From a virus: 34,691 nt of DNA. The notes beneath the pieces were generated by a model. That model did not search any database. It was not told the DNA's origin and was given only the letters and a program-made list of their open reading frames with translations. The DNA is taken from positions 1 through 34,691 of IMG/VR virus record IMGVR_UViG_3300028048_000053, one strand, 5' to 3'. Below are positions 17,809 through 34,691 of the stretch, in pieces. A program made the position numbers and the translations under genes. The first letter of the stretch is position 1; every line of letters begins with the position of its first letter.

Positions 17809-18023
17809 TGTTCAGAGTTTGGTTTGATGATTTGGAAGTAGCCATTGCGGCGTTCCGCAAGGTCGTGATGGACGAACTGTTCGTTTCTATTAGCGGCAAT
17901 CTCTACGGCGATTTCATTTTTGAGATTTCCGAGGGTATCAAGTACACCGTGAAGCACAACGATTTCAGCGTGTGGCGCAATTTCGGGGATTGGAGAAAAC
18001 CCGATTGGAGGGAAATCAAGTAA
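17808..18023 (+). CDS. hypothetical protein (71 aa), translationally coupled (TGATG)
   Basis: ORF track 17805..18023. Confidence 0.6.
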   Translation: MFRVWFDDLEVAIAAFRKVVMDELFVSISGNLYGDFIFEISEGIKYTVKHNDFSVWRNFGDWRKPDWREIK

Positions 18024-18145
18024 TGCCATCCCTCTATTATACCTATTCTCATTGCTCGTTGTCGCCGCTTCAATTTATTATCGCATTTGCTATTGGTGCG
18101 GCGATTGGTGCGGGAATTATTTTCTACTTTACGAATAAAGGGTGA
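18023..18145 (+). CDS. possible single-TM peptide (40 aa), coupled via TAATG
   Basis: ATG overlaps the upstream stop; hydrophobic FIIAFAIGAAIGAGIIFYF; ends inside a 24-bp palindrome terminator. Confidence 0.35.
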   Translation: MPSLYYTYSHCSLSPLQFIIAFAIGAAIGAGIIFYFTNKG

Positions 18146-18161
18146 ATAATTATTCACCCTT
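18138..18161. repeat. perfect 24-bp palindrome AAGGGTGAATAATTATTCACCCTT
   Basis: seen directly; shorter GAATAATTATTC copy at 10234-10245. Confidence 0.7.
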
Positions 18162-18256
18162 TATTCATTGCCCGGGCGCAAAAATTTTTTTTCAAAAACC
18201 CCTTGACAAGTTGCTGTAAATGTGCTATACTACATTCAGAAAGTGAGGGATGCAAG

Positions 18257-18433
18257 ATGCGTGATTTTAAATGGACTGACGAACTGTGGTGCGTTGTAAA
18301 AAACGATGGTAGCTTTGCGGGTGCTCCCTGTCTGAGTTGGGAGGAGGCGCGAGAACTTCAGGCGCAGTACGAAAACAGTCAAATGTATCTGTTGAAACCT
18401 GTCGGATGGATTTCTAAGGAGGATAAAAAATGA
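18257..18433 (+). CDS. hypothetical protein (58 aa)
   Basis: class I promoter 18208-18237; in frame with ORF 18203..18433. Confidence 0.6.
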   Translation: MRDFKWTDELWCVVKNDGSFAGAPCLSWEEARELQAQYENSQMYLLKPVGWISKEDKK

Positions 18434-18789
18434 AGCTGACTAAAAAGTTTTTCTGCCCTGTGAACGGATGGGACTGCCCTTACTGGAAAGAGGACGGTTT
18501 CTGCTCCATGGTCGATAATGGGGATGACCCCGTTATGGAGTGCGACGATGCCGCCACTTTCTGGGAACCCGACGAGGATTACTTCGTGTGGGCTGACGAG
18601 GACGGCGCAACCTACGATGTGGAATGGCTCTTGGAGCTTGGCTATCACTTCGTCAATGGTGAGCCTGTGAAAGCTCCCTCTTCCGACTTCATCAAGGCGA
18701 CTTTGGAAAAAGTTCTCGAACATTGGGATGAAGAGGTCAGTTTTCCTCCCGACTTTGATGAAATGGGGTCAAATGGGTTTAGGGGGTAA
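18430..18789 (+). CDS. hypothetical acidic Cys-containing protein (119 aa)
   Basis: GGAGGATAAAAAATG; ORF track; terminator 18790-18825. Confidence 0.75.
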   Translation: MKLTKKFFCPVNGWDCPYWKEDGFCSMVDNGDDPVMECDDAATFWEPDEDYFVWADEDGATYDVEWLLELGYHFVNGEPVKAPSSDFIKATLEKVLEHWDEEVSFPPDFDEMGSNGFRG

Positions 18790-19282
18790 ATAAGAGGGGG
18801 GTAAATGCCCCCTCTACTTTCGCCCGGGCAACTGGCTTCAAGGCTTTAAATGACTAAAGTGAACCGGCCGCTGACAGGGGCAGCGAGCCGAACTCTCGCC
18901 CAAACACACCATATGCAAATTTTTTGCTCAATCTAGCAGGTCTTAGACCGCCCGGGCATTTTCCCGAAACATGCGGGGAGGAGCGCAGCGACTCCCATAT
19001 GGCCCGCCTAACGGTTGAAAGTGAGGGGCACCCACCCAGCAAAAACTTTCTCGCTGCGCGAGAAACCGGCCTCTGGGGCCGTTTTTTAGCCCCTTGCGGG
19101 CTTGATTTTTATAAAAAATTATGTTATAATATAAAAAAACGGCTGCTTTTTACCAAAATTTACCATTTTTTGTTGTTTTTTATAAAAAAATATGTTATAA
19201 TGTAAAAAAAAGACTAAAAATGGGCGGCCCCAAGGGCCGTTTTCTCTTTTTTCGCCAAAATTTCAGAGCATTATATCGGAGT

Positions 19283-19608
19283 ATTAGGCAATTTCGGGCT
19301 CTGACTAGGCAATTTCATTTAAAATATACCCCTCGTGAAAAATTGTTCATTAAGGTAATTCAAACATTTAAAATCGGCATTTTAAGCCTTTTTTCGGCCT
19401 AACGGCCGAAAAAGCTGGTCCAGAAGAGGAAGATAAAAGAGACCATGGGAAGGTTTAAAGTTTGCGGCAACCGCAAAATTCTTCTCTGATATACTGGGGC
19501 ATTAGACAATTTTAAGCGCTGATTAGGCAATTTCATTTAACAGATACCCCTTCTGAAAAATTACAGTGCTAGGTAAATGAAACATTTAAAATCGGCATTT
19601 TAAGCCGA
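19283..19608. repeat. two copies (19283-19392 and 19497-19608) of an imperfect ~90-bp direct repeat, each ending in palindrome TTAAAATCGGCATTTTAA
   Basis: patchy similarity by eye, roughly half of positions over ~85 bp, strongest in the terminal palindrome; flanked by AT-rich promoter-like elements and hairpin terminators. Confidence 0.6.
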
Positions 19609-19710
19609 TTTCTCGCTTTGAGACCTCTGACCGAGGCGGCCGCAGGTTTGCAATTTTTAAAAAATTTTGATATAATATATATAGAAAATAAAGAAAGGAA
19701 TAAAAAAACT

Positions 19711-20085
19711 ATGGTAACTAAGAATGATATTATTTCTCGCCTCCAGAAGGGTGAGGATATTGATGCTATCGCCGCAGAGTTCACTAATCTGCTCAATGAC
19801 GCGTCGAAAGAGTACACAGCCAAGCACAAGAAGAATGCGGCTGCCGAGGAGCTGGCCGTGGCGTTCAACGACTTCCTTGAGTCCTACTATCCCAACCTTG
19901 TGAAGAACGCACCTATCACTCCGGATGAGCTGATTGAGCTCTTTGATGCGCTCTCCGAGCTAGTGGAGACGCTTGGTGACCTTACGTCTATTCTGGCTCC
20001 GGGTAAGCCGGAGACTAAGTCCAAGAGCAAGGAAGATATGGATAAGGAGACAATTGAGGCGTTTCTGCGGTCGCTGCAGCTGTGA
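19711..20085 (+). CDS. hypothetical protein (124 aa); first gene driven by a class II (AT-rich) promoter
   Basis: TGATATAATATATATAGAAAATAAAGAAAGGAAT leader; ATG 19711 in frame with ORF 19618..20085; terminator 20106-20138. Confidence 0.7.
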   Translation: MVTKNDIISRLQKGEDIDAIAAEFTNLLNDASKEYTAKHKKNAAAEELAVAFNDFLESYYPNLVKNAPITPDELIELFDALSELVETLGDLTSILAPGKPETKSKSKEDMDKETIEAFLRSLQL

Positions 20086-20105
20086 GAAGAAAATATCTAA
20101 GTTAT

Positions 20106-20138
20106 AGAGGGACAGAGCTAATGCTCTGTCTCTTTTTG
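20106..20138 (+). terminator. intrinsic terminator AGAGGGACAGAGC-taat-GCTCTGTCTCT + T5
   Basis: perfect stem then T-tract. Confidence 0.7.
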
Positions 20139-20197
20139 TTTGGCTGCGCGAACCGGAGGTAAAAAAGGGCCTCTGGGGTCGGCTCTGCTCACGCAAC

Positions 20198-20350
20198 GAA
20201 TTTTAGTATTTTTATATAGAATTTTTAGTATTTTTATATAGAATTTTTAGCATTTTTATTAACGAATTTTAGCATTTCTATTTAAAATGTTTAGCATTTT
20301 TATATAGAGTTTTAGTATTCTTTATATAGTATTTTAATAGTTCTATACAA
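20198..20350. repeat. about 7 tandem copies of a 22-bp AT-rich unit GAATTTTTAGTATTTTTATATA (iteron-like)
   Basis: seen directly. Confidence 0.7.
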
Positions 20351-20384
20351 CGAACTTCAACCTTTCTTAAATAACTCCATATGC

Positions 20385-20450
20385 CATTTCATTTCATTTT
20401 TCTATTATCTTCTTCGACCCTTCCCCACATTTTCATTTCATTTTTCTATT
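20385..20450. repeat. 2 copies of CATTT(T)CATTTCATTTTTCTATT
   Basis: seen directly. Confidence 0.6.
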
Positions 20451-21029
20451 CCCCGAAGATTAGTATTTATACTCCACCGTTCTTCCGGCATAATTATATT
20501 TTGGCTTAAAAACCCTAATCAGCCCTAATTCCATACTCTATACATCACGCTTTGTTATCTTACTATTACTCTTTATCTTGGAAACATCAATCAGTTTTTT
20601 AAATTCAATTTTATTTTCTTTATTTATCTAATTATAAAAAATTAATTCTTTACTACATGTTTCTATACCCCTTTTATGTTCTTCCCATCTTTCCTCAAAA
20701 TCTCTCATTGTCATACCTACATATACTAATTCATCATTTTCATAAATACCATAGACTCCATAAGATATAGTCTTTTCCTATTTAATATGATATTTTTTCT
20801 CATAAATCTTTACTTCTTGCTATAAAGCATAATAAAAATTATCTATTTCTTTCTATGCTATCGGAATTAAATGTTTTAAAATTATCTAAATATAATGATT
20901 TAAATCTCCTTTACTCTTTTTCGTTTGAGTTTGCTTAAAAAAATAACTAACAATATTCTAAAAAGAATCTAAATCTATAAACTCCCAGTATTTACCACAA
21001 GACAATATATAACCTGGCAGATTACTTCT

Positions 21030-21227
21030 CTATTCTTTAGTTAAAAAACAAACATAAGAATCATGACTACAACTATCTAATTTATAATTACTATCTAATT
21101 TTGGCATCTGCTTAATTATATATTGGTATACAATATACATATTTTTTCGATTCAAACTTTTATGCTCACATTTCATACATTTTTCAAATTCTTCTTGTGA
21201 AACCAACTTTATAACCTCCTCATACAT
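21030..21227 (-). CDS. possible small Cys/His protein (65 aa)
   Basis: C-terminal part of minus ORF 21030..21548; upstream part of that ORF is the low-complexity repeat array. Confidence 0.3.
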   Translation of the reverse strand: MYEEVIKLVSQEEFEKCMKCEHKSLNRKNMYIVYQYIIKQMPKLDSNYKLDSCSHDSYVCFLTKE

Positions 21228-21239
21228 TACCGAGCATCC

Positions 21240-21510
21240 TAAAAATACAAAACTTGTTTTGTATTTTTTTGTACAAAAACTTGTTTTTTGTACAAAAAGT
21301 TGTAAAAATACAACATTTTTGTTGTATTGTAAGACTAAAGATAGCTTATACAAAAAATACAAAAATACAAAAATTCTTGTATCGTAGAGTCTAAAAACTA
21401 CAATTTTCGTACAAAAAACATAAGCATTTATACAAAAATACATAATAGATAAATACAATAAAAATACAATCGTACAATTTTCATACAAAAATTCGTACAA
21501 AAAATCTATA
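21240..21510. repeat. array of GTACAAAAA / TACAAAAATAC direct repeats interleaved with palindromes
   Basis: palindromes TACAAAAC-ttg-TTTTGTA, GTACAAAAA-cttg-TTTTTTGTAC, AATACAACA-ttttt-GTTGTATT read directly. Confidence 0.65.
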
Positions 21511-21511
21511 A

Positions 21512-21886
21512 TCAAAATATAGCATTGGGGTCCTTGCGTTGTACCCATCCTTTTTTATGCTGTATAGTATTCAACTTTACTCCAAAATAATCGGCTATCT
21601 CTTGCGCGCTCATATTATTTCTAGCCATTTTGTATACTTCGGCATCGGTAACTTTGAGACGAACTTTGCCTCCGTTGCGCTTTTCTTCATACTTAGCAAT
21701 ACTGACATCTATACGCCCCTTCAATAAATTTACATAAGAGTTTATACTGGGGTCATCCGTATATTTCTATTCTAAACGACAGCCATATCTGATTAAATCA
21801 GCAATGATTTTGTCCTAACTTTCCACTGGCAACTAATCAATAGCTTCTAACCAATCACTGTGTACAATAAAAGTATTATCAGCCAT
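21512..21886 (-). CDS. HTH protein (124 codons; possible ArpU/RinA-like sigma-region-4-type regulator) with three in-frame TAG codons
   Basis: ATG 21886-21884 preceded by AAGGGGGA SD; in-frame TAG at 21833-35, 21815-17, 21767-69 (plus coordinates); no TAA/TGA for 124 codons in AT-rich DNA; C-terminal ORF 21512..21724 alone has no start or SD. Confidence 0.55.
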
Positions 21887-21890
21887 TCTA

Positions 21891-22070
21891 TTAGTCCCCC
21901 TTGGCGCCAAAAATTAAGTCTAATTTTTTTTCTAATTCTGGCGTATCTTCAAAAACCCAACACCAATACTATGGCTAAAATGGATTCTTTATAGTTTCAA
22001 CGGGATATACTCCCATTTTCACCAACTTTAGCATTATTTTGCGAGAATAAATAATTCGATTCTTTAGCAT
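21891..22070 (-). CDS. small protein (59 codons) with two in-frame TAG codons
   Basis: ATAGGAGTG SD 9 nt before ATG 22070; TAG at plus 21975-77 and 21969-71; stop TAA 21893-21891 abuts the SD of the next gene. Confidence 0.45.
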
Positions 22071-22086
22071 TAATTAGCACTCCTAT

Positions 22087-22221
22087 TTACTTAGATTCTT
22101 GTCTTTGTATAAAATATTTTATCGCTTTTCTAACAACTTGCGACATAGATAAATCATGAGCAGAAGCATACTTCTCAATCCATGCTTTGTCCTCTTCTGA
22201 AATTCTTATAGAAATAAGCAA
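22087..22221 (-). CDS. ribbon-helix-helix (CopG/Arc-like) DNA-binding protein (~44 aa)
   Basis: ISIRISEEDKAWIEKYASAHDLSMSQVVRKAIKYF matches the beta-strand plus two-helix RHH pattern; TTG 22221 (or GTG 22230) start; first gene of the minus operon. Confidence 0.55.
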   Translation of the reverse strand: MLISIRISEEDKAWIEKYASAHDLSMSQVVRKAIKYFIQRQESK

Positions 22222-22257
22222 TATGTTCACATCCTTTCACATCTATTTGAAAATTCT

Positions 22258-22277
22258 TTGTAATACATTGTAATACA
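22258..22277. repeat. tandem direct repeat TTGTAATACA x2 in divergent promoter region
   Basis: seen directly, immediately upstream (minus sense) of the RHH gene. Confidence 0.6.
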
Positions 22278-22342
22278 TTGTCCAACACTTTTAACATTTT
22301 AATATAATTTTCTGTCGTTAAAGACCGTAAGTACTAAATCCT

Positions 22343-22370
22343 TTTCAGAAGGCTGTAAGCCTTCTGAAAA
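22343..22370. terminator. bidirectional hairpin TTTTCAGAAGGCT-gtaa-AGCCTTCTGAAAA
   Basis: perfect 13-bp stem flanked by T-run and A-run. Confidence 0.6.
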
Positions 22371-22434
22371 ATTTGAAACATATAAAAAAATAATATATAA
22401 TATATATAGAAGATAAAAAAGGAGGTTTCCATAT

Positions 22435-22686
22435 ATGTACCCTTTTGTTTGCGGCGTCCGCTATTTCCCCGCATTCCTAGACCCTGAGAAGGAAGTAACC
22501 GAACAGCACACCAATGTTTTAATCTACGCCCCCAACTTCGCAGAAGCTACCGCCCAGGTTGAAGCCTACTTTGGTGACGAGCTCATTGCGGTAACTGTAG
22601 AAGCCATTGCGGACACCGGCACCCTGTTCGAGGTCTCCGACGAAATCGCTAACAGCCTCACTCTGGGCGAAGGATGTATTACCTAA
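22435..22686 (+). CDS. hypothetical protein (83 aa)
   Basis: class II promoter + AAAAAGGAGG SD; ORF track. Confidence 0.75.
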   Translation: MYPFVCGVRYFPAFLDPEKEVTEQHTNVLIYAPNFAEATAQVEAYFGDELIAVTVEAIADTGTLFEVSDEIANSLTLGEGCIT

Positions 22687-23756: not shown

Positions 23757-24485
23757 TTGCATACCGTGGTTGCCAAATCATTCCAGTCCTTAGAGATTCT
23801 TGACGAGCCCCATGCAGTCGGCGGCAAGCCCGCTTTGTATGTTACAGTGCGCACCAAGACTGGCGGTACTCGTGTAGTTAGATGGTATAGCGATAAAGAG
23901 TATGCCAAGATGTATCCTGGCGAGGCTCCTGCGGCGACCCAGCCTCTGCGACCTCTCAAGGAAGTCCTTGGCTTTGAGAAGGGCTACATTACTATCTTCA
24001 AGGGAAATACCTACGAAGATAGGGATTATTTCAAACTCAATGCGGCTCGCTATCACAAGTTGTGGGGGTGGTATTTCATTTCTACCGACGAGCTTCCCAC
24101 CGATATTCCCGAGGATGTAACCCCCATTCGGCTTAATTGGGAAGATATTAGTACCGATGATAACACCCTAAAGAATGATGCGGCAATTACCGCTGCTGTT
24201 GAATCTCTTATCTATGAACCCGATAACAGCGAGTATCAGGGTGAGGTTGGGGATAAGCTCGAACTTGTCGTTGTGGTAGAAAAAGCTGTCGATCTCGATG
24301 GCTACTTCGGTCGTTCTCGAATGCACATCTTTAGGGACTATGACGGGAACTGCTATGTCTGGACCACGTCCGCGCGGAACTGGGAACCGCAGACCGAGCA
24401 TCATATTATCGGAACCGTAAAAGACCATAAGCTGTACAAAGGAACCAAGCAGACCGTGCTCACGCGCTGCCGGAGTCTAGATTAA
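23757..24485 (+). CDS. hypothetical protein (~240 aa; start TTG 23757 or, more likely, GTG 23766 which sits 9 nt after AAGGAG)
   Basis: ORF track; no ATG with SD nearby. Confidence 0.65.
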   Translation: MHTVVAKSFQSLEILDEPHAVGGKPALYVTVRTKTGGTRVVRWYSDKEYAKMYPGEAPAATQPLRPLKEVLGFEKGYITIFKGNTYEDRDYFKLNAARYHKLWGWYFISTDELPTDIPEDVTPIRLNWEDISTDDNTLKNDAAITAAVESLIYEPDNSEYQGEVGDKLELVVVVEKAVDLDGYFGRSRMHIFRDYDGNCYVWTTSARNWEPQTEHHIIGTVKDHKLYKGTKQTVLTRCRSLD

Positions 24486-24499
24486 GGAGGGATAAGACG

Positions 24500-24652
24500 A
24501 TGCGCAGATACTACAAATATTGCGTAATGGGCAGAGAGCGCAATAAAGACACGGGCATTCACCCAATTAGCATCCATATCACTTTTTTGGGAGCTGTGAT
24601 TGGATATATGTTTGCCCTGCAAGATTTTAAAGATGTTTATTTGATTAAGTAA
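24500..24652 (+). CDS. small hydrophobic protein (50 aa)
   Basis: TAAGGAGGGATAAGACGATG; stop TAA 24650-52; below ORF-track cutoff. Confidence 0.5.
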   Translation: MRRYYKYCVMGRERNKDTGIHPISIHITFLGAVIGYMFALQDFKDVYLIK

Positions 24653-24665
24653 GGAATTGATGTAA

Positions 24666-25829
24666 ATGGGTTCTAACTCAAAACAGTATTTGATTACAAA
24701 CTGGAAAGCCCTTTTGGAAGACTTTTCAGAACAGGTTAAAGAAGGGCGCTATACAAAAATGCCCTACACAGAATGGCGGGAATTTAATTTGGTAAAGCCG
24801 CCTGAGCGATTTTATTTCTACACTCACACTCCCTCTGAATCGGAGTGGTATGTAAGTTTCCAGTTCAATGGTAAGCATCATACCTATAATGTAAAAACAG
24901 AAGAAGGAGAAGACTCTTTTGGTGATTTTCTTCTTGATGTAGGTAAAAATATAGCTCATTGTGATTACGCTTGCTTGCCAGAAGGCAAAATTTACGAGGT
25001 TAGGATACCAGCCTCGGCTTATCCGTCACTTAATTGTAGTGATACAATAGAATTTACCATCCAAGATGAAGATTGGTTAAAAGAATGGAATAGTATAATT
25101 TCTACCCCTAATAATATAACTATTGATAACACAACAAATAAAAAGGAGGATACAAAAATGAACGACATGTTTAACTTTGATTTTGGCCCTGCTTCTGGCT
25201 ACAATTTCCGTATGAGTCCCTACGGTCTTGCGGTCCGCACCGAGAAGAACGGCTGGGTTGCTTATAATACCCAGACCAATGAGCTCATGGATGTCAATGT
25301 GCTTAACTTTGACATGGATGGCATGATTTATAAGATGCCTGTTGCACTTGCGGCCATCCAGAAGGGCGATATTCTGATGCATTGCGGCAAGCCCGTCTTT
25401 GTGCGCGGTGTGGGGAGTGACACCGTCCAGGTGGTAGACTACGCAAACGCCTCTGTGTCCAGTATTCTGCCCGTGAAGAGCCCGTTCGGGTTTAATTTCT
25501 TCGTTAAAATTGTTTCTCTGATGGACTTCCAGAATATCAACGCCAGCAATGAGAATCCTTTTGGCAATATGCTGCCTTTTATCATGATGAAGAATTCTAA
25601 GCACTCTAGCGACGAGCGTCCTGACATTGACCCCATGGTACTCATGTTTATGATGAATGGTGGCAATGCTAACTTTATGCAGAACCCCATGATGATGTAC
25701 CTCCTTCTGAGCAAGGGGGAGAATGGCGATATGCTCCCTTTTCTTCTCCTGACCGGAATGGGCGCGTCTACTACCCCAGTAGCTTCCGGTCAGGCCCCTG
25801 TCGCTACGTCCAACCAGGCGAACGCATAA
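24666..25829 (+). CDS. hypothetical protein (387 aa) with Met/Phe/Pro-rich low-complexity C-terminal half; strong in-frame internal SD+ATG at 25158
   Basis: ORF track; internal AAAAGGAGGATACAAAAATG. Confidence 0.65.
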   Translation: MGSNSKQYLITNWKALLEDFSEQVKEGRYTKMPYTEWREFNLVKPPERFYFYTHTPSESEWYVSFQFNGKHHTYNVKTEEGEDSFGDFLLDVGKNIAHCDYACLPEGKIYEVRIPASAYPSLNCSDTIEFTIQDEDWLKEWNSIISTPNNITIDNTTNKKEDTKMNDMFNFDFGPASGYNFRMSPYGLAVRTEKNGWVAYNTQTNELMDVNVLNFDMDGMIYKMPVALAAIQKGDILMHCGKPVFVRGVGSDTVQVVDYANASVSSILPVKSPFGFNFFVKIVSLMDFQNINASNENPFGNMLPFIMMKNSKHSSDERPDIDPMVLMFMMNGGNANFMQNPMMMYLLLSKGENGDMLPFLLLTGMGASTTPVASGQAPVATSNQANA

Positions 25830-25936
25830 CTTTCGCAACAAACTAATCCTAAAGGGAGAACAAAAGTTCTCCCTTTACTTTTATAAAAAAATATTATATA
25901 ATATATATAGAAAGTTAAGAAATGGAGGCTTCACAA

Positions 25937-26122
25937 ATGGATAATTACAGAGACGACATTAATCGCATCCTGCGCAACGGCATTGAAATTGCCTGGGACA
26001 AGGGGTACATGGAAGACGATGTTTCGGAATTTGTGCAGAAGCATTTTCCCGACGAGGAAGATGCGGGTTGGGAAAAGGCTTATGAGCTTATTCGTGAAGC
26101 CATGCATACATATTTTGATTAA
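25937..26122 (+). CDS. hypothetical protein (61 aa)
   Basis: class II promoter; AATGGAGG SD; ATG 25937 in frame with ORF 25922..26122. Confidence 0.65.
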   Translation: MDNYRDDINRILRNGIEIAWDKGYMEDDVSEFVQKHFPDEEDAGWEKAYELIREAMHTYFD

Positions 26123-26142
26123 TTAAGAGGGATTAATAATCA

Positions 26143-27825
26143 ATGCAAGATGTTTTTAGCGGATTGACAGAGAAAGATTTAAGAGATATACAGGTAGTAC
26201 GTGCTTATTTTGGCGATAAAGACGAGAGTGACCTTCTCGCACCCTCAGCCTGGTTGCAGCATTGGCAATATAACAAGAATCAGTATTTAAAGTTTCTTTT
26301 TAAGGACAACCTTATCCTTGAGCGCCAAGTTTCTTATCACCAGGAGCAATATGAGCTGTCTCATGTGATTTCCAGAGTCGTCTTCAATGATTTTTGTACC
26401 TATGGCGCTACTGACGAGCAGAAAAAGGCTATGGATTGGAAAACCGCCATGGAAAATTTTTACAGGCCACTCAGAGATTCTTCTAATCCAGAAGTTCAGC
26501 GCGCGTGGTGTGATATTGGCTACTTAATGGAGTGCTGGTATTTGGCCAGTAATGAATTTACCCCAGATGGCGATACGCGCCCCAGTATTGTCCCATATGG
26601 GGATGGAAAAACCTTTAAGATTCAGCCGCATTGTAAGGTAAGTAAAGCTCTTGGGAAACTTAGTCAGATTGCGGGACTACAAGATGAATGGGAGCCCATT
26701 AGAATCAAAATTTCGCAGGTACTGAATCAGAGTAAACTTACAGGAACGCTGCACCTTTCCATCCATCCCATGGATTATTTCACTGCTAGTCTGAACGATT
26801 ATGATTGGCAATCTTGTATGAATTTTATTGATGGAGATTATCGTCGTGGTGTAATCGAAATGATGAATTCTCCTATGGTCGTAGTTGCATATTTGACCGG
26901 AGCCAATAAGAAGTTTCAGGTAATTAACGATGTTTATGCCAATAACAAAAAGTGGAGAGAATTTTTTATCATTACTCCAGAAATGATTAGCGGCGTAAAG
27001 GGTTATCCATACTGGAGCACGGAGCTTGAAGCACAAACTATCAACTGGTTGAGAGAGCTAATTGCGGCCGCCCATGACGAATTGCCAGAGCAGTTCCAGA
27101 AAGTAACCTGGATAGATGGTGTACAAAAGTTTCACGTTGGTGAAAAAAACGAGCTAAAAGGCATTGACCACCCCGTTAGCTTTGACATTCAGTGCGGCCC
27201 CGCCATGTATGATGATTTTTATCATGGTGAAGTGTATCAAGCTATTTTCTCTGATAAAATACCTATGACATACTATCTTGACTATTCTGGCTTTAGCGAG
27301 TGTTTAATCTGCGGCAATGAGTGTGATGAGGACGACGAACCGAATGACGTAGTCTGCGGCTGTTGTAACGATTATGTCCATTGCGTAGGGTGCGGAGATA
27401 GGTATCATAAGGGTGACATACATATAGTTGAATTTGATGGGCAGTATTATTGTTCTTACTGCTATGATAACTTGACCCGATGTGAATCATGTGGAGAAAT
27501 AATAGGTAATGACTACAATGTTTATTACTTCACAAAAACAGCAGAAAATGGAAATAAATATTTGCTGGAGGAAGGCAAAGTTTTATGTGAAGATTGTCTT
27601 GAAAATTACTTAAAAAATCCAGAGGCTGTTAAAGAAATTACCCCTCCATGGATATACTACGCAACTTGGCATACTATAAGCGCCATAGATGTAGATGATT
27701 TGACCGAAGAGGGACAGCAAGAATTATTCAATCGACCACTTGATGAAGTTTTCAATGAATTCAGCTGCTGGAATCTTAATACCAAAGAGGGGCCGAAACC
27801 CCTGGATGAAAAAATCCCTTTTTGA
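26143..27825 (+). CDS. large hypothetical protein (560 aa) with C-terminal cluster of CxxC motifs (multiple Zn-ribbons)
   Basis: ORF track; AAGAGGGATTAATAATCAATG. Confidence 0.75.
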   Translation: MQDVFSGLTEKDLRDIQVVRAYFGDKDESDLLAPSAWLQHWQYNKNQYLKFLFKDNLILERQVSYHQEQYELSHVISRVVFNDFCTYGATDEQKKAMDWKTAMENFYRPLRDSSNPEVQRAWCDIGYLMECWYLASNEFTPDGDTRPSIVPYGDGKTFKIQPHCKVSKALGKLSQIAGLQDEWEPIRIKISQVLNQSKLTGTLHLSIHPMDYFTASLNDYDWQSCMNFIDGDYRRGVIEMMNSPMVVVAYLTGANKKFQVINDVYANNKKWREFFIITPEMISGVKGYPYWSTELEAQTINWLRELIAAAHDELPEQFQKVTWIDGVQKFHVGEKNELKGIDHPVSFDIQCGPAMYDDFYHGEVYQAIFSDKIPMTYYLDYSGFSECLICGNECDEDDEPNDVVCGCCNDYVHCVGCGDRYHKGDIHIVEFDGQYYCSYCYDNLTRCESCGEIIGNDYNVYYFTKTAENGNKYLLEEGKVLCEDCLENYLKNPEAVKEITPPWIYYATWHTISAIDVDDLTEEGQQELFNRPLDEVFNEFSCWNLNTKEGPKPLDEKIPF

Positions 27826-27906
27826 TTTTTTTAAAAAAATAATATATTATATATATACAAGGTAAGAAAAAAATAAAAATTAAATTTTTGAAAGGACTTG
27901 TGAATT

Positions 27907-28320
27907 ATGGAAAAGAAAATTACGAAGCGGAATGTGCTGGATGTTCTGGTTGCGGCCGTCGATGCCGGCGACATTGTTCTGGACACCTACGGTGATGTGA
28001 CTGCCGAGGATGTGCGCAACTACGCCGTCAATGAGATTGCGCTGCTCGATAAGAGGGCTGAGAGAGCCAAGGAGCGTGCGGCCAAGACCAAGGCCGATGG
28101 TGATGAGCTGACTGAGGTGCTGTATGAGGCACTTGGCGCCGACTTTGAGCCTATTCCCGACATTCTGGCTCGCATCGAGGGTGAGGATATCACCGCTGCG
28201 AAGATTGCCGTCCGCCTGAAGAGACTGGCTGACGATGGGCGCGCTGAGCGTTCTGAGATTAAGGTCAAGGCTGCTGACGGTGGTAAAAGCCGCACGTTGG
28301 TTGCGTACCGTAAGGCGTAA
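27907..28320 (+). CDS. hypothetical Ala/Asp/Glu-rich protein (137 aa); GC-rich coding sequence under an AT-rich class II promoter
   Basis: ORF track; overlapping minus ORF 28020..28295 is antisense to this GC-rich gene and judged spurious. Confidence 0.7.
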   Translation: MEKKITKRNVLDVLVAAVDAGDIVLDTYGDVTAEDVRNYAVNEIALLDKRAERAKERAAKTKADGDELTEVLYEALGADFEPIPDILARIEGEDITAAKIAVRLKRLADDGRAERSEIKVKAADGGKSRTLVAYRKA

Positions 28321-28415
28321 TCCGTAGACCGCTTGAATGGAGAGAGGTTAATCCTCTCTCCATTTGTTTTTTATAAAAAAATATTGTATAATAAGAGTAT
28401 AAGGAGTGATAAAAT

Positions 28416-29192
28416 ATGAAATATAGTATTTCTGGTAGATAGCCCAAAGAATTGTTACAAAAAGCGGATGAAATTTTCATTGAGTACAGAGATAAAGATG
28501 TACTTTTTGATTATGTAGAGTTATATCCCGATAAAAAAATTGTGATGTTTATTCCAAAAGATACAGAAGTAGATTGGGATTTACTTAAAAGTTTTAATGA
28601 AAAACTCAATCTTACCTTGGAGATAGAACAAATTAAAGATGCAGAACTGGTTAATTTTCATTGGTTTTGGCACTTTCCGGTAACTACATATTTTGAATTA
28701 GATGGTATTCTTGCGCTTAATACATCGGAAGTTTTAATTGGTGGGCCATTGTTCTTTGACTTAGAGCGAGTAAAAGAGTTGTGCAAGGATATTGAAATAA
28801 GAGCCGTACCAAATGTTGCCTTTGACGCATATATTCCAAGAACAAATGGCATATGTGGCACTTATATCCGTCCAGAAGATGTGGTAACATATGAACCATA
28901 CATTAACACTCTAGTTTTTAAATATGAAGATCTAAAAGAAGAAAGAATGTTATTCCAAGTTTACAAAGAGGATCAGAAGTGGCCAGGTAATCTATATTTT
29001 TTAATTAAAAATCTCAACAAGCATGTAGATAATAGAGGGTTTGAAGAAGATTTCGCAAGCACTCGCCTCAACTGCCGCCAGACCTGCTGCCGCAATCATA
29101 TATGCCATTTTTGTGAATCTTACATTACTTTTATAAACACCATAGATAAAAATAAAAACTATCTAAAGGAACAATTAAATGACGATAAGTAA
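28416..29192 (+). CDS. hypothetical Cys-containing protein (258 codons) whose codon 9 is TAG
   Basis: class II promoter with AAGGAG-N8-ATG 28416 in the standard position; TAG 28440-28442 in frame; ORF 28452..29192 continues in the same frame with no SD of its own. Confidence 0.55.
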
Positions 29193-30120
29193 GAAAGATA
29201 TTGACTTATTAAAAGGCTTATGCTATCTGTCTGAAACCAAAATATTAAAATTATTTTCAGACTTTCTAACCCAGCATCAATACTCTCCCATTGTAACAAA
29301 AGACTATTTGATTGCCGAGGGGGATCTTCCAATTCTTCTGGTTGCTCATGTAGATACAGTTTTTCCAAAAGTACCAACAGAGATTTATTTCGATAGTGAG
29401 AAAAATGTCATGTGGAGTCCTAATGGATTGGGCGCAGATGATCGGGCCGGAGTGTTTGGTATAGCTAAGATTTTACAGCATGAAAGCAACTTGCGGCCGC
29501 ACATTCTTCTCACGACTGGAGAAGAGAGCGGAGGAGTTGGAGTATCTGAATTGATAACCACATTCACAGAGTCACCTTTTTTAGAACTGAAATATGTTAT
29601 TGAACTCGATAGACAAGGATTTGATGAGTGTGTTTTCTACGATTGTGATAATCAGAAATTTATCAATTATGTAACAAGTTTTGATTTTGTAGAAACAATA
29701 GGATTGTTTTCTGATATATCTATTCTTTGTCCAGCTTGGAATATTGCCGGAGTAAATCTTTCTATCGGATATATAGATGAACATTCATATATTGAAAGAC
29801 TCTTTGTAAATAAAATTTATGAAACTATTGAAAAAGTTATAACAATGTTACAAGATTATGACAATATAGATTGTTATAAATATTTTTCAAATTCTTCACG
29901 TTTGGTCGATATGGATTGTTGTGACGTGTGTCACAAAAAGACTATAGATTCAGTATTGACCGTCGCACAGAGTCTAGACTCCGCCAATACCATGTTCTAT
30001 GCGTTAGTATGTCCATCTTGCGCCCAGCGTTGTATACAGTATTGTAAGAAATGTAAAACAGCTTTTATTGACTCATACAAAAATGATTTATGTTATTCAT
30101 GTAGAAAGGAGACAAATTAA
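29179..30120 (+). CDS. M42/M20-type metallopeptidase-like domain fused to a C-terminal Cys-rich Zn-ribbon region (313 aa)
   Basis: LLVAHVDTV, GLGADDRAGV, LLTTGEESGGVG and LDRQG motifs resemble M42 (FrvX/TET-like) metal-binding residues; ORF track. Confidence 0.55.
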   Translation: MTISKKDIDLLKGLCYLSETKILKLFSDFLTQHQYSPIVTKDYLIAEGDLPILLVAHVDTVFPKVPTEIYFDSEKNVMWSPNGLGADDRAGVFGIAKILQHESNLRPHILLTTGEESGGVGVSELITTFTESPFLELKYVIELDRQGFDECVFYDCDNQKFINYVTSFDFVETIGLFSDISILCPAWNIAGVNLSIGYIDEHSYIERLFVNKIYETIEKVITMLQDYDNIDCYKYFSNSSRLVDMDCCDVCHKKTIDSVLTVAQSLDSANTMFYALVCPSCAQRCIQYCKKCKTAFIDSYKNDLCYSCRKETN

Positions 30121-30125
30121 ATAAT

Positions 30126-30428
30126 ATGCGTGGAGCAATTGCGAAAACTCAAGTAGAAGATATTATTGCCAAAGCATTTGGGGATAAGTATATCGGAACA
30201 TATGATAAGAAATTGTATGTTTGGGCCGATGATGGCGGTGAAGAGGTACAAATCTCCATCGCGCTGACCTGTCCAAAAGTACCAGTGGGCGCAGAAGCCG
30301 TGCAAAAGCCTGCGACTATGGATTTTGAAAATAATCCAGACTTTGCGGTCCCCGCACCTGCGGCCGCAGAGATTACACCAGAAGAGACCGCAACTTTACA
30401 GGATATGCTAAAAAAGCTAGGTCTGTAA
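30126..30428 (+). CDS. hypothetical protein (100 aa)
   Basis: ORF track; ATG 5 nt after upstream stop. Confidence 0.65.
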   Translation: MRGAIAKTQVEDIIAKAFGDKYIGTYDKKLYVWADDGGEEVQISIALTCPKVPVGAEAVQKPATMDFENNPDFAVPAPAAAEITPEETATLQDMLKKLGL

Positions 30429-30556
30429 TTGCTACTGGACAAAAGAGATTAATTGAGTTTCGTTAAAAAACTAGTTTAGCGAAACTCAATTTTCCTTTTT
30501 GATTTTTTATAAAAAATAATATATAATATTTATAGAAAGTTAAGGAGGGAAAAGGT

Positions 30557-30805
30557 ATGACACTCCGAGATATCCTTGAGGGGCATCCTCCCGTAGATCG
30601 AATCCAGTGGAGAAGTAATGCTCCAAAAGAATGGGAAGATGAGGAGCCAGACGGCATCTTCTGTGGCTATTGCGCTTGGGATGGTGAAAAACTCGTTTCT
30701 CTAGACGGTGATTATTATTCTCTAAACACAGAAATTTATCGTTATGAGTGGGAAAAAGATGGCTCGCTAACCTACTGGGAAAAAGTGGAGTGGATTTCTG
30801 GATAA
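30557..30805 (+). CDS. hypothetical protein (82 aa)
   Basis: class II promoter; TAAGGAGGGAAAAGGTATG; ORF track. Confidence 0.75.
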   Translation: MTLRDILEGHPPVDRIQWRSNAPKEWEDEEPDGIFCGYCAWDGEKLVSLDGDYYSLNTEIYRYEWEKDGSLTYWEKVEWISG

Positions 30806-30834
30806 ATATATGAAAGTAAAAACTATCGCTCCTA

Positions 30835-30863
30835 TTGATTTTTTATAAAAAATATATTATAAT
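30835..30863 (+). promoter_or_regulatory. class II promoter TTGATT-N17-TATAAT + ATATATAGAAAATAAAGAAAGG
   Basis: -35 30835-30840; -10 30858-30863. Confidence 0.65.
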
Positions 30864-30896
30864 ATATATAGAAAATAAAGAAAGGGGAAATGAAAA

Positions 30897-31049
30897 ATGA
30901 TTATTGAGCATGACACTTACACCGGTGAGATTCGCGCAGAGTGTGAGGGATGTGGCCGGCAATGGCTTTTTGAAGAGTGCGAAGTAATTCTTTCTCCTTG
31001 GCCGCACGTAGAATGTCCTGTATGCGGCGAATTTATACCCTTATTTTGA
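30897..31049 (+). CDS. Zn-ribbon protein (CEGCG...CPVCG), 50 aa
   Basis: ATG 30897; the alternative ATG 30890 hits a stop after 5 codons; TGA 31047-49. Confidence 0.55.
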   Translation: MIIEHDTYTGEIRAECEGCGRQWLFEECEVILSPWPHVECPVCGEFIPLF

Positions 31050-31118
31050 GACGCTTGGGCAAAAAAAGTTAGGCAATAACACCATTTTTTTATATTTATA
31101 TGAAAGGATGTGTGACAT

Positions 31119-32012
31119 ATGCCAAGATATAAAGATGAAACTGGCAATAAGTATGGAAAATTAACCGTTCTATACCCTACCGATAAGAGAAATTCCAAAA
31201 GAGAGATTTTTTGGCATTGTAAATGTGACTGCGGAAATGAGTGTGATGTTTTGGGTAGATTACTGCGAAACGGGAATACTCGTTCTTGTGGTTGTCTAAG
31301 GATTGGCTCAAAAACATTGGATGAAATCGGTAATAGATATGGAAAATTAACCGTAATTTCGTAGGCCAAGGATAAAATTAATAATCATGTTGCGTGGAAT
31401 TGTTTGTGCGATTGCGGAAATAATATTATAGTATCTGGCACAAAATTACGCTCTTAGGAAATCACGGCTTGTCCAACTTGCCGCCAATTGCAAAAGCCAA
31501 AATTGACAGATGTGAATGAACAATATGGTGATCTTACTGTTTTGGAATCTGCAGGACGAGATAAGTATAGAAGATTATTGTGGAAATGTCGATGCTCTTG
31601 CGGAAATATTTGTATTGTTGCCGGCATAGATTTAAGGTCTGGACAAAAAACTAGCTGCGGCTGTAAAAAAACCCTATCTAAAGGGGCAGATAAAATAAGA
31701 CAAATTTTACAAGAAAATAATGTTCATTTTACCTAGGAAAAGACTTTTGATTCGTGTAGATTTCCGGATACCAACTAGCTCGCTCGTTTTGACTTTTATC
31801 TTCCCGAACAAAATGTTTTAATTGAGTATGATGGAAACCAGCACTTTTTTTATACAAATCATCATTGGGATACCAAAGAACATTTTGAATATACAAAAAG
31901 ACATGATGAATATAAAAATCAATGGTGTAAAGAAAACAATATAAAATTAATTAGAATTCCGTATTACGATATAAAGCAAATATCTTATGAAAAGATATTG
32001 GCTCTATTCTAA
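31119..32012 (+). CDS. homing-endonuclease-like protein: three YG.LTV..W.C.C.CGN...SCGC Zn-finger repeats + C-terminal Vsr/DUF559-like PD-(D/E)XK domain (FDFYLP...IEYDG.QH); four in-frame TAG codons
   Basis: single frame maintained 31119-32012 (ORFs 31119..31364 and 31488..31736 share the frame); TAG at 31362-64, 31455-57, 31734-36, 31776-78; no TAA/TGA until 32010. Confidence 0.5.
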
Positions 32013-32023
32013 GGAGGATAGCT

Positions 32024-32512
32024 ATGGAATTAAATGTATTTAAACAGTATTACTCTCCTTGGAACCATATTACCAACTGGCCTCGCAACATCAAACTCTT
32101 TTTCCGCAGATATAAATGGGCTTATCAGAGAGCAACTCGTGGATATGCAGATTGTGACGTCTGGGATTTAGACCACTTTTACACCAATCTTTTTGTGGGC
32201 AGCTTAAATCGGTTGGCAGACATTACGGTTAGCTATCCAGGTGATGAAAATTTTCCCACTTACGAAGATTGGATAAGCTATCTGCGCGAGATGGCCCAGT
32301 TGTTTAGTCGGTCGTTAGAATCAAATAATTATTATCCCACTCCGGCGGAAGAGAAGTGGTGGGATTGGAGTCAGAAGCATGGATGGAAAGACGAAAATCC
32401 TTTTAACGATGACATGATAAAGGAAGCTCATGAGAACGCTCTCAATAGAGAAGAGGATTTTAACAAAGCATGGGAGATGATGGGACGTGTTTATGGACAC
32501 TTGTGGGACTAA
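32024..32512 (+). CDS. hypothetical Trp-rich protein (162 aa)
   Basis: CTAAGGAGGATAGCTATG; ORF track. Confidence 0.75.
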   Translation: MELNVFKQYYSPWNHITNWPRNIKLFFRRYKWAYQRATRGYADCDVWDLDHFYTNLFVGSLNRLADITVSYPGDENFPTYEDWISYLREMAQLFSRSLESNNYYPTPAEEKWWDWSQKHGWKDENPFNDDMIKEAHENALNREEDFNKAWEMMGRVYGHLWD

Positions 32513-32687
32513 AGATTACTTTATTGTTTCTGAGAATGAGGGCAAGTGTATGATTTGCGGCCATGAGACAAATCTCATAGACCCATGTGCTGAAGCTTAT
32601 CTGTGTTCGCCTGAATGCGAAGAAAAACTCATCCAGATGATGGTAGAGTATGAAAGAGAACATCCGATGGAAATTGATTTTTTATAA
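32493..32687 (+). CDS. possible Cys-rich small protein (start uncertain: GTG 32487, ATG 32493 or ATG 32548)
   Basis: ORF track 32487..32687; overlaps the end of the upstream gene; weak SD. Confidence 0.35.
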   Translation: MDTCGTKDYFIVSENEGKCMICGHETNLIDPCAEAYLCSPECEEKLIQMMVEYEREHPMEIDFL

Positions 32688-32702
32688 AAAATAATATATA
32701 AT
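32674..32702 (+). promoter_or_regulatory. class II promoter TTGATT-N17-TATAAT driving the tRNA cluster
   Basis: -35 32674-32679; -10 32697-32702. Confidence 0.6.
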
Positions 32703-32729
32703 ATATATAGAAAGTTAAGAAAGGAATAT

Positions 32730-32816
32730 GGGTCGGTATCCCGTAGCAGGTAGCGGTTCTGGCTGTAAATCAGGTGTCTAGCGACTCGGTTGGTTCGATC
32801 CCAACCCGGCCCACCA
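32730..32816 (+). tRNA. tRNA-Tyr (GUA), class II long variable arm, CCA encoded
   Basis: manual fold: acceptor GGGTCGG/CCGGCCC, anticodon loop CTGTAAA, variable stem GTC/GAC, T arm GTTGG-TTCGATC-CCAAC. Confidence 0.7.
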
Positions 32817-32909
32817 ATCGCCCTATTGGCAGACTAAAACAGAATCTATGCAATAGTATTGGCGCTGTGTCTACTGATATGGCGTCACTGTATGGTGAAG
32901 GAGATTATT

Positions 32910-33095
32910 ATGCATACCTTTCATTCTCAGGATAAATACAATTTCCATCACAATGGAGATTTTTCCGGTGACGTGATAATCACTAAGGATGATGACACTA
33001 ATTTTGAAATTGAAATTAGTAGTCAAGCTCTTCTTGAATATGCTCGTTATGTAATTGACTCTGTTCTTACAGAAAAAATTGAAGACATTATGTAA
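32910..33095 (+). CDS. hypothetical protein (61 aa) between tRNA-Tyr and tRNA-His
   Basis: GAAGGAGATTATTATG; in frame with ORF 32859..33095. Confidence 0.55.
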   Translation: MHTFHSQDKYNFHHNGDFSGDVIITKDDDTNFEIEISSQALLEYARYVIDSVLTEKIEDIM

Positions 33096-33096
33096 T

Positions 33097-33174
33097 GGTG
33101 GGAGTAGCTTAGTTGGCTAAAGCACCAGATTGTGGCTCTGGGGACCGCGGGTTCAAGACCCGTCTCTCACCCCA
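33097..33174 (+). tRNA. tRNA-His (GUG) with encoded G-1 pairing to C73, CCA encoded
   Basis: manual fold: acceptor GTGGGAG/CTCTCAC, anticodon stem CCAGA/TCTGG with loop TTGTGGC, T arm GCGGG-TTCAAGA-CCCGT. Confidence 0.7.
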
Positions 33175-33215
33175 TTTATGCCTCCTTAGCTCAGCTGGTC
33201 AGAGCACGCGGCTGT

Positions 33216-33682
33216 TTGCCTGACCTTACATTCTTGATGAAAAAGAAAAATGAATAGTAAGCAAAAAGGCAATATTACTGAATTAGAAACAATGTTAGCG
33301 TTTTTAAAACATGGTTTTAATGTTTTAACTCCTTATGGAGATTGTGAAAGATATGATTTTGTAGTAGACGCTAACAGAAAGTTTTATCGAATTCAGAGTA
33401 AAACAGCAAGCACAGAAGACGATGGAGCTTCGTTTAAGTTTTCTTGTAGGAGCTCAAATCGTCAAGATGGTAGAATAGTCCATCACCAATATACAAAAGA
33501 TGAAATTGACTATTTCGTAACTTCTTTTGAAGGAAAATGTTATTTAATTCCAGTTGAAGAATGTGGTTGTGATAAACGACTTCGTCTTTTTCCTACTAAA
33601 AATGGACAAACAAGAGGAATAAGCTGGGCAAAAGATTATGAAATGGAGGAAGTAATCAAGAATTGGTAAGCTGATGTGCAAG
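33216..33682 (+). mobile_element. 467-bp insertion in the tRNA-Asp anticodon loop carrying an endonuclease-like ORF; group-I-intron-like boundaries (5' exon ends in T, insertion ends in G)
   Basis: boundaries inferred from tRNA cloverleaf; only ~47 nt of the insertion lie outside the ORF, so the intron class is unresolved. Confidence 0.5.
33250..33669 (+). CDS. putative homing endonuclease of the PD-(D/E)XK / Hjc-like fold (139 aa) encoded inside the tRNA-Asp insertion
   Basis: pattern E11..LK.GF.V..P.GD..RYDFVVD....FYRIQSK resembles small restriction-endonuclease-fold nucleases; ORF track. Confidence 0.45.
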   Translation: MNSKQKGNITELETMLAFLKHGFNVLTPYGDCERYDFVVDANRKFYRIQSKTASTEDDGASFKFSCRSSNRQDGRIVHHQYTKDEIDYFVTSFEGKCYLIPVEECGCDKRLRLFPTKNGQTRGISWAKDYEMEEVIKNW

Positions 33683-33906
33683 CAACCGCGGTGTCGTAGG
33701 TTCGAATCCTACAGGAGGCGCCAGGCCCGTGGATCCGAGGGCACAGTATCGGACAAAATACGCTGGCATATCGTAGAGAGTGCGCAATCTCAAATATGCG
33801 ATACCGCTATTCGTTGGGGCGGGATATAAATGCAGCAACGACAGGTCGCTTGAACCTGATTGATCCTGTCGGCGGTACGGGAGAAGAAAAGCATCCGCTG
33901 TTTTAT

Positions 33907-33982
33907 AGGGGATTGGTGTAGTAGGGAGCATCTGCGCCTCCAAAGCGTTAGAGAGAGGGTCCGAGTCCTTCATCCCCTGCCA
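33907..33982 (+). tRNA. possible tRNA-Trp (CCA), weak (several G-U pairs, T-loop TCCGAGT)
   Basis: acceptor AGGGGAT/ATCCCCT perfect, discriminator G, CCA encoded, anticodon loop CTCCAAA; D and T arms non-canonical. Confidence 0.35.
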
Positions 33983-34256
33983 ATAGTGAGTCGTTTAAGC
34001 AAGACTGCGGCCATGGTAACGCAATGTTGGGTAGCGACCGGCACCAACCTCACTATTATATGCCTCGGTAGTTTAGCAAGTAAAACGGTGGACACATATT
34101 TTTATGTGGCTGCAAGTGGATGGAGCGTGGCCGTCTCGGGGCACCAACGGCAAGGTGGCGTAGCGTGAGCTACAAGTGCGAATGACTGAACGCACTAAAA
34201 ACTGGCAATGGGCAAGCCTTCTGTATAGTAAAACCAAGAAGTCTATTTTTTAATAT

Positions 34257-34331
34257 GCCGGGGTCATATAGTGGTTAGTATGCGGAACTGATAATTCCGT
34301 CATGGCAGTCCGACTCTGCCCCCTGGCACCA
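34257..34331 (+). tRNA. tRNA-Ile (GAU), CCA encoded
   Basis: acceptor GCCGGGG/CCCTGGC, anticodon stem CGGAA/TTCCG with loop CTGATAA, T arm GGCAG-TCCGACT-CTGCC. Confidence 0.7.
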
Positions 34332-34413
34332 TAAATCTCAGCTGAGATAGGGATAGCTCTGCGTTTGGAGTAGCATTTCAGTCGTCGGGGGCGGAGCGCT
34401 GAGATTTTTATAT

Positions 34414-34489
34414 CCCGCTGTAGCACAATCGGTCAGTGCCGGCAACTTATAATTGTCAGATGCTGGTTCAAATCCAGACAGCGGGACCA
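34414..34489 (+). tRNA. tRNA-Ile (UAU) (AUA decoder), CCA encoded
   Basis: acceptor CCCGCTG/CAGCGGG, D arm GCAC..GTGC, anticodon stem GGCAA/TTGTC with loop CTTATAA. Confidence 0.55.
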
Positions 34490-34569
34490 AAAACCTTGTT
34501 AGTTAGTGGAGAATAGCAGCGAGGTTTGCATTAAATTAATAAAGACACATACAGCAATTTATACTTGAA

Positions 34570-34640
34570 AGTATATTAGTCCAATGGTAGGACGCAAAAG
34601 TTTTAATTTTGAAGAATTGGTTCAAATCCAATATTTACTT
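34570..34640 (+). pseudogene. degenerate tRNA-like sequence (anticodon loop GTTTTAA, Lys-UUU-like) lacking CCA, with an acceptor mismatch
   Basis: D stem GTCC/GGAC, anticodon stem CAAAA/TTTTG, T arm ATTGG-TTCAAAT-CCAAT; acceptor AGTATAT/ATTTACT has 1 mismatch. Confidence 0.3.
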
Positions 34641-34691
34641 TTTGGTGTCTTGATTTTTATAAAAAAATATAATATAATAATTATAGAAAAG

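Follow-up and report, generated by a model that had tools for sequence, protein, structure and literature searches.

The window, which is the whole stretch of 34,691 nucleotides analysed here (IMG/VR virus record IMGVR_UViG_3300028048_000053), holds near its 3' end a gene resembling homing endonucleases, whose reading frame is crossed by four TAG codons. This raises the question of whether TAG is translated in this gene and, if so, as which amino acid and for the production of which protein.

The window corresponds to the start of contig k141_3465 (171,985 bp) of ENA ERZ27252073, to which it is identical over an 11.4-kb overlap with L006, a record of the contig reaching to 43.6 kb, and over the full 20.6 kb of L008. 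In the gene calls publicly available for it, TAG is already translated as glutamine. Most window genes are small and lie on the plus strand, and the GC content is 0.43. No close relative was found by megablast or tblastn against GenBank phages or by a pattern search of IMG/VR; a 560-aa window protein had no tblastn match in 50,697 GenBank phage records, and positions 24000-34691, the only part queried at the nucleotide level, gave one match to GenBank phages, in Enterococcus phage EFP01 (73.6% over 33268-33566). The contig DNA to 43.6 kb contains no structural genes, lysis genes or terminase. The gene order of the window is found in L002 and L003 (172-kb contig) and in L011 (174 kb), with 32-68% protein identity and sparse recoding in the region. 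Recoding goes further in L013, a related phage of 204 kb, whose DnaB, RecJ and PolIII-alpha genes contain 5-14 TAGs.

The gene and the motif that precedes it are the following:

31119..32012, plus strand: free-standing homing-endonuclease gene, 297 codons followed by TAA, with TAG read as glutamine
31103..31108, plus strand: Shine-Dalgarno-like AAAGGA, 10 nt 5' of the ATG, read from the sequence and of putative function

From the ATG at 31119 to the TAA at 32010-32012, a single plus-strand frame of 297 sense codons is kept, in which the only stops before the terminator are TAGs, at 31362, 31455, 31734 and 31776 (codons 82, 113, 206 and 220). This is the frame that a first, sequence-only reading had proposed; its coordinates are confirmed, and the ORF pieces 31119-31364 and 31488-31736 indeed share it. 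The coding frame has no TAA and no TGA before its terminator, against 12 and 31 in the other two plus-strand frames. Such a TAA/TGA-free frame is far beyond chance: shuffling the 891 nt 20,000 times never produced one, and the analytic probability is about 8e-9. PHROG endonuclease profiles span all four TAGs, among them phrog_559 (residues 28-293, E 2e-31) and phrog_374 (E 2e-44), and the endonuclease called publicly on the source contig is likewise 297 aa long (L006 7870-8763). Comparison of the window allele with the 94%-identical allele of L001 yields, over the whole frame, a dN/dS of 0.088 (dS 0.249, dN 0.022), and the differences are scattered along the entire frame, also 3' of every TAG. 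Because the ratio is low and the substitutions are spread along the gene, the full frame is under purifying selection, and the gene is intact rather than a pseudogene.

The homologues behave in the same manner. A protein search returned more than 7,000 relatives, the best of which is 94% identical over 297 aa, and several are full-length at 64-67% identity. The DNA behind six homologue hits (L001, L002, L003-5, L011, L013) was read. In all six, TAG is the sole in-frame stop, the database proteins carry Q at these positions and the DNAs are flagged as not translating under table 11; further TAGs are found in them at codons 35, 63, 157, 189, 240/241, 262 and 274. The earlier claim that TAG is translated in this gene therefore gains support on several sides, from profiles that cross all the TAGs, from the dN/dS of 0.088 and from exchanges of TAG and CAG between alleles. 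The observations that would have spoken against it are absent: the relatives whose DNA was read carry TAG inside their frames, several relatives are full-length, and the window gene shows no frameshift, TAA or TGA that would mark it as decayed.

In-frame TAGs are not restricted to this locus. The other genes concerned, two of which lie beyond the window end, are:

20460..21227, minus strand: GIY-YIG-like gene, 255 aa, 8 TAG and no TAA or TGA, in a low-GC island; a weak label, given from a motif seen by eye and a match to phrog_16880 at E 0.0017
21512..21886, minus strand: DUF6291 gene, 3 in-frame TAG
21891..22070, minus strand: 59-aa gene, 2 in-frame TAG
28416..29192, plus strand: 258-aa non-endonuclease gene, 1 TAG, at codon 9 (28440-28442)
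9881-10378, plus strand: 165-aa gene, 1 in-frame TAG (public code-15 call)
L006 17731-18459: HNH endonuclease gene in the tRNA array, 3 TAG, 6-9 kb past the window end
L006 20089-20420: HNH endonuclease gene in the tRNA array, at least 1 TAG, 6-9 kb past the window end

Three nuclease classes, Vsr-like, GIY-YIG-like and HNH, thus carry in-frame TAG, one of the two HNH labels being below the Pfam cut-off. Between 5.6 and 43.6 kb of the contig, the four endonuclease-like genes contain 16 TAG in 904 codons, as compared with 9 in 6,845 codons of the other called genes (odds ratio 13.7, Fisher p 8e-10), which makes TAG about 14 times denser in the former; it should be noted that the TAG-rich genes are also the AT-richest (GC 0.25-0.37 versus 0.43 for the window), so that in this comparison a CAG-to-TAG mutation bias is confounded with a regulatory role. 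Expressed as a share of glutamine codons, TAG amounts to 41% in the endonuclease-like genes versus 5% in the others. The 31 TAG-free genes of the window (5,113 codons) use 92 CAG and 44 CAA. As a terminator, TAG is hardly used: in our own selection of standard-code ORFs, with the endonuclease fragments excluded, 58 ORFs end in TAA (42), TGA (15) or TAG (1), and the public calls have no TAG terminator, a count that is circular since the calls were made under code 15. Most window genes have no TAG, and the extent of recoding across the genome of this phage is accordingly judged from a few genes and from the public caller's choice of code 15. One TAG, at 10214-10216, may genuinely end its ORF (9854-10216) if the standard code applies; the codon score falls from 23.2 to 18.5 when this ORF is extended to the code-15 gene 9881-10378.

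L002 and L003, whose versions of the 258-aa protein are only 38-41% identical to it, also have TAG where codon 9 aligns; so early a conserved TAG may serve to gate translation instead of being a neutral glutamine codon. The GIY-YIG-like gene and its two neighbours belong to a low-GC island (20100-22500; GC 0.29 over 20-22 kb), which is the sole block of minus-strand genes in the window and gives the impression of a mobile cassette, itself recoded, that has been inserted.

A suppressor tRNA was searched for in the tRNA genes of the phage and of its relatives. Downstream of the endonuclease gene, the window enters an array that also houses a further nuclease:

32730..34641, plus strand: start of the phage tRNA array (Tyr, His, Trp, Ile, Ile-UAU, Lys), which continues past the window
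33250-33669: PD-(D/E)XK endonuclease gene inside the tRNA array (Pfam PDDEXK_5, E 5e-31), with no TAG

Using ARAGORN and Rfam, no tRNA with a CUA anticodon was found in the window, in the contig up to 43.6 kb (L006) or in the relatives L002, L003, L011, L013 and L014 (about 90 kb in all), a search that covered about a quarter of the source genome. RF2 and GlnRS were not found in the same three sets of DNA. One tRNA-like gene, at L006 19778-19862, was considered as a TAG suppressor and rejected, its anticodon being UGA and its long variable arm that of a Ser-type tRNA; this 85-nt gene lies between tRNA-Ser and tRNA-Arg, was missed by ARAGORN and scores 43.5 bits with the Rfam tRNA-Sec family (gathering 47). 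In published recoded genomes, a suppressor tRNA was detected in only 40% of those that recode TAG (Borges et al., bioRxiv 10.1101/2021.08.26.457843). Separately, a lone tRNA-Lys(UUU) is found at 13240-13314, 19 kb upstream of the main array, which itself has a second tRNA-Lys(UUU).

The lack of a suppressor tRNA in the DNA examined, together with the concentration of TAG in endonuclease-like genes and its near absence from about 5100 other window codons, would suit a model of leaky read-through, in which TAG stays a stop for phage and host, natural or tRNA-mediated suppression at a low level lets a trickle of full-length nuclease be made, and the TAGs attenuate a toxic selfish gene. This model is nonetheless improbable. 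Four to eight successive TAGs per gene would multiply to a negligible yield, TAG occupies the position of a near-invariant residue, Gln241, in two alleles, and essential replication genes of the relative L013 contain 5-14 TAGs, as mentioned above. Moreover, TAG is almost never used as a terminator.

The mobility of the gene has then to be considered. The endonuclease gene sits between two ORFs of the same orientation, outside any detected intron RNA family (no group I or group II intron family reaches the Rfam gathering scores in the window), and this copy is free-standing, resident neither in an intron nor in an intein. A scan for promoters and terminators around the gene gave sites no commoner than in shuffled sequences. 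Its upstream neighbour is of interest for the history of the locus:

30897..31049, plus strand: 50-aa gene, of which L002 has a homologue directly 5' of its own endonuclease gene; the 100% identity to L001 is lost at the 3' end of the window copy

Of the 261 nt that precede the gene in the Logan contig L001, 257 match the window and the first 182 do so without exception, versus 94.1% identity for the gene body. The four differences start at the last codons of the 50-aa gene (window 31040-31118 versus L001 180-261), and a boundary of recombination or co-conversion is located at the 5' edge of the endonuclease gene. Because the flank is identical and the gene body is at 94.1%, near-identical phage backgrounds carry diverged endonuclease alleles; such allele exchange is what is expected of a mobile active gene, and is the sole, indirect sign of homing at this locus. 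On a larger scale, the endonuclease of the window is 64-67% identical to those of L002 and L003 and the flanking genes are only 32-53% identical, a greater similarity which suggests that the endonuclease moved horizontally.

It might then be argued that a standard-code phage newly acquired these low-GC genes from recoded phages and that they are truncated and non-functional in their present host genome. The GC content of the TAG-bearing genes (0.25-0.37, against 0.43) and the resemblance of the endonuclease to its L002 and L003 counterparts, closer than that of its flanks, are compatible with recent import. Dead genes are, however, very difficult to reconcile with the two alleles on an otherwise identical background, whose dS of 0.25 and dN/dS of 0.088 imply selection on the full frame within the lineage. 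In addition, a core, syntenic and non-mobile gene keeps its codon-9 TAG in three diverged phages, that of the window included, TAG is avoided as a terminator, and neither TAA, TGA nor frameshift has accumulated. We give this account even less credence than leaky read-through.

Translation of TAG as a sense codon is thus the reading to be pursued, and the amino acid can be sought in the homologues. The four codons compare as follows:

31362..31364, plus strand: TAG codon 82, aligned with Q or K in homologues; TAG also in L001 and L002
31455..31457, plus strand: TAG codon 113, aligned residue mostly G; TAG also in L001
31734..31736, plus strand: TAG codon 206, aligned with Q, E or T; CAA in L002, TAG in L001
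31776..31778, plus strand: TAG codon 220, CAG in the 94%-identical L001; TAG in L002

The sequence-only reading had pointed to homologues as a source for the residue at the TAG positions, and they do supply Q at several of these, with the sense codons CAG or CAA in some relatives. The most informative positions are two. At codon 220, the window has TAG and L001 has CAG. The situation is reversed at codon 241, which encodes the glutamine of the EYDGxQH motif: it is CAG in the window and TAG in both L001 and L002. Q241 is near-invariant: 90% or more of 64 homologues have Q there, as do the three NCBI-sourced ones. In syntenic genes, TAG is paired most often with TAG, CAA or CAG, then with E, K, R and T. 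Because TAG and CAG are swapped at codons 220 and 241, the latter a near-invariant glutamine, TAG is a glutamine sense codon (genetic code 15) in the endonuclease gene and in the phage lineage.

Could TAG specify another amino acid, such as Pyl, Trp, Tyr, Leu, Ser, Glu or Lys? At several TAG positions, homologues do have E, K, G, T or R, and no tRNA that would fix the identity was found in the DNA examined. Yet close alleles alternate TAG with CAG or CAA, with CAG and TAG a single C<->T step apart, TAG is used at the near-invariant Q241 in two alleles, and Q is the commonest aligned residue; TAG-recoded phages are also described as generally using TAG for Gln (bioRxiv 10.1101/2021.08.26.457843; PMC9523058). 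Assignment to a residue other than glutamine is therefore extremely unlikely. The glutamine assignment amounts to a clean demonstration, at the level of one gene, that TAG is Gln in an uncharacterised lineage of phages of about 170-200 kb, where TAG is tolerated even at a near-invariant glutamine of the catalytic domain, as in the L001 and L002 alleles. In practical terms, annotation under the standard code would fragment the endonuclease gene and several of its neighbours.

With TAG read as glutamine, the protein has the following parts:

31143..31295, plus strand: Cys-rich repeat 1, covering residues 9-59, made of three beta strands plus a short helix; presumed DNA-binding/Zn module
31329..31481, plus strand: Cys-rich repeat 2, residues 71-121, with two TAGs and a C..C end in place of CGC
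31515..31664, plus strand: Cys-rich repeat 3, residues 133-182
31674..32009, plus strand: C-terminal domain, residues ~186-297, predicted Vsr-like PD-(D/E)XK nuclease

The three repeats announced by the sequence-only reading, the second with two TAGs inside it, are indeed recovered at these residues, and follow the pattern YG(K/D)LTV...W.C.C.CGN...L(R).G...(S)C(G)C. In repeat 2, C118 and C121 do not vary among 64 homologues, and its C..C ending is accordingly a trait of the whole family and not a sign of decay. The C-terminal domain contains the block FDFYLP...IEYDGNQH...D..K...IRIPY, and its residues D225, E236, H242, D263 and K266 are invariant in the 64-homologue alignment; E207 is invariant in an alignment of five sequences. 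An AlphaFold2 model, computed from the 94%-identical protein P0001 and 63 homologues, is confident along the whole chain (mean pLDDT 89.4). It shows three similar modules, each of three beta strands and a short helix with the invariant W-x-C-x-C-x-C-G...C-x-C, followed by an alpha/beta domain, and Foldseek comparisons agree with this architecture, with weak E-values and a probability of about 1. That the gene is dying, with its TAGs as nonsense mutations, is hardly credible in view of these data and has effectively been refuted already: homing endonuclease genes do cycle through decay and repeat 2 is the less canonical one (ACPTC versus SCGC), but the in-frame stops are TAG only, without any frameshift, dN/dS is 0.088, repeat 2 has the same C..C ending in all 64 homologues and the model is confident throughout.

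As for the class of nuclease, the earlier suggestion of a Vsr/DUF559-type PD-(D/E)XK C-terminus stands at the level of the fold, which is predicted to be Vsr-like and is recognised by fold comparison only; it does not extend to a Pfam family profile. A Pfam search with the protein found no family, apart from a chance match to AAA_11 at E 0.15. The HNH (at E<=1), NUMOD and HTH profiles of Pfam did not match the protein, and a profile search of PDB sequences returned nothing real. In the nuclease region, some homologues match Pfam DUF2726 or PvuRts1I-like_N. The 'HNH' label given by PHROG was not retained for this protein, which has no HNH motif, no Pfam HNH match and a Vsr-like fold. The three Cys-rich, beta-rich repeats presumably bind DNA.

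The prototype of Vsr-like 'EDxHD' homing endonucleases is I-Bth0305I, which has N-terminal DNA-binding modules (PMC3239194). The window protein shares with it (PDB 3R3P) the type of nuclease domain, Vsr-like PD-(D/E)XK, and the layout of N-terminal modules followed by a C-terminal nuclease, but there is no match at the sequence level. Where I-Bth0305I and the EDxHD family have NUMOD/HTH modules, the window protein has 185 residues of three Cys-rich repeats, and whereas I-Bth0305I is intron-encoded, the window gene is free-standing. The invariant D225, H242 and D263 of the window protein are candidate counterparts of D196, H213 and D222 in I-Bth0305I. Similar nuclease domains, at 12-18% sequence identity, are found in E. 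coli Vsr, in the DUF559-like NGO0050 (3hrl) and in the N-terminal nuclease domain of PvuRts1I/AbaSI. However, these occur in another domain context, and nothing links the window protein to mismatch repair or to restriction of modified bases. The nearest families are PHROG 374, 559 and 9084 ('HNH'/'homing endonuclease'), whose members are full-length sequence homologues at about 30% identity, which share its Cys repeats and its EYDGx(Q/H)H...D..K nuclease block. They are typical intron-borne or free-standing mobile genes, but their phages use the standard code. One homologue, gp083 of Staphylococcus phage vB_SscM-1, is located inside a split terL (terminase large subunit), a position typical of a mobile intron endonuclease. 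The pairing of Cys-rich repeats with a Vsr-like nuclease is unusual.

Taken together, it is very probable that the locus is an intact, free-standing endonuclease gene, with Cys repeats and a Vsr-like domain, in a code-15 phage of about 172 kb. Recoding of TAG to Gln with suppressor tRNAs is documented in gut phages (bioRxiv 10.1101/2021.08.26.457843), and proteomic proof of code 15 exists for crAss-like phages (PMC9523058). Code 15 in phages is therefore established, and had already been applied to contig k141_3465 by the public gene caller; what is new here is a further example, in an undescribed phage lineage. As in the known code-15 phages (crAss-like, Lak, the 'gemstone' clades of Borges et al. 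and Phassvirus), TAGs in conserved genes align with Gln, TAG-free regions lie beside recoded genes, and a large genome is accompanied by a tRNA array.

The probable course of events is as follows. The four TAG sense codons arose from CAG through C-to-T changes. They would be read as soon as the infected cell can suppress TAG, by means of a phage-encoded tRNA(CUA), possibly together with changes in release factors, if the phage resembles other recoded phages in this respect. Genes with in-frame stops may then be expressed late, after the code switch, as proposed in the recoded-phage literature. All four TAGs precede the conserved D225, H242 and D263; therefore, a cell that reads TAG as a stop would make no active nuclease. 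A precedent is the TGA->Trp recoded endonuclease of an intron in an early gene, for which in-frame stops were proposed to delay production until late infection (Borges et al., bioRxiv 10.1101/2021.08.26.457843). That case differs from the present one in codon and setting, since in the window phage the reassigned codon is TAG, read as Gln, and the genes, which belong to three nuclease classes, are free-standing. Still, by analogy, the roughly 14-fold TAG density suggests that the code switch may delay nuclease expression until late infection. The concentration of TAG in four endonuclease-like genes extends the single published example of a TGA-recoded intron endonuclease, and the timing of nuclease expression by a code switch, whether it serves the phages or the selfish genes, becomes testable.

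A bolder version, which we consider doubtful, is that in this phage lineage TAG is a dedicated timing lock on selfish nucleases. The Vsr-like, GIY-YIG-like and HNH genes, which lie among TAG-poor genes, would each stay silent until the code is switched; mobile genes would carry TAG and the dependence on the code switch into new genomes, and would thus be both beneficiaries and spreaders of the reassignment.

Some minor features of the window may finally be mentioned. Scans for reassignment over the whole window were set aside: no single reassignment opens long ORFs in the first 20 kb, a region of many small plus-strand genes. Long TAG-containing frames on the minus strand, for example 8970-10136 (minus strand), were likewise dismissed as antisense shadows of plus-strand genes. 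Positions 1-20000 hold about 40 small plus-strand genes (40-220 aa) separated by unusually wide gaps of 100-700 nt. Among these small early genes are found an HD-domain protein at 15590-16195 (Pfam, E 1.6e-6) and, at 16794-17075, a 93-aa protein resembling the MazE antitoxin, according to a precomputed Pfam match of the public gene call.
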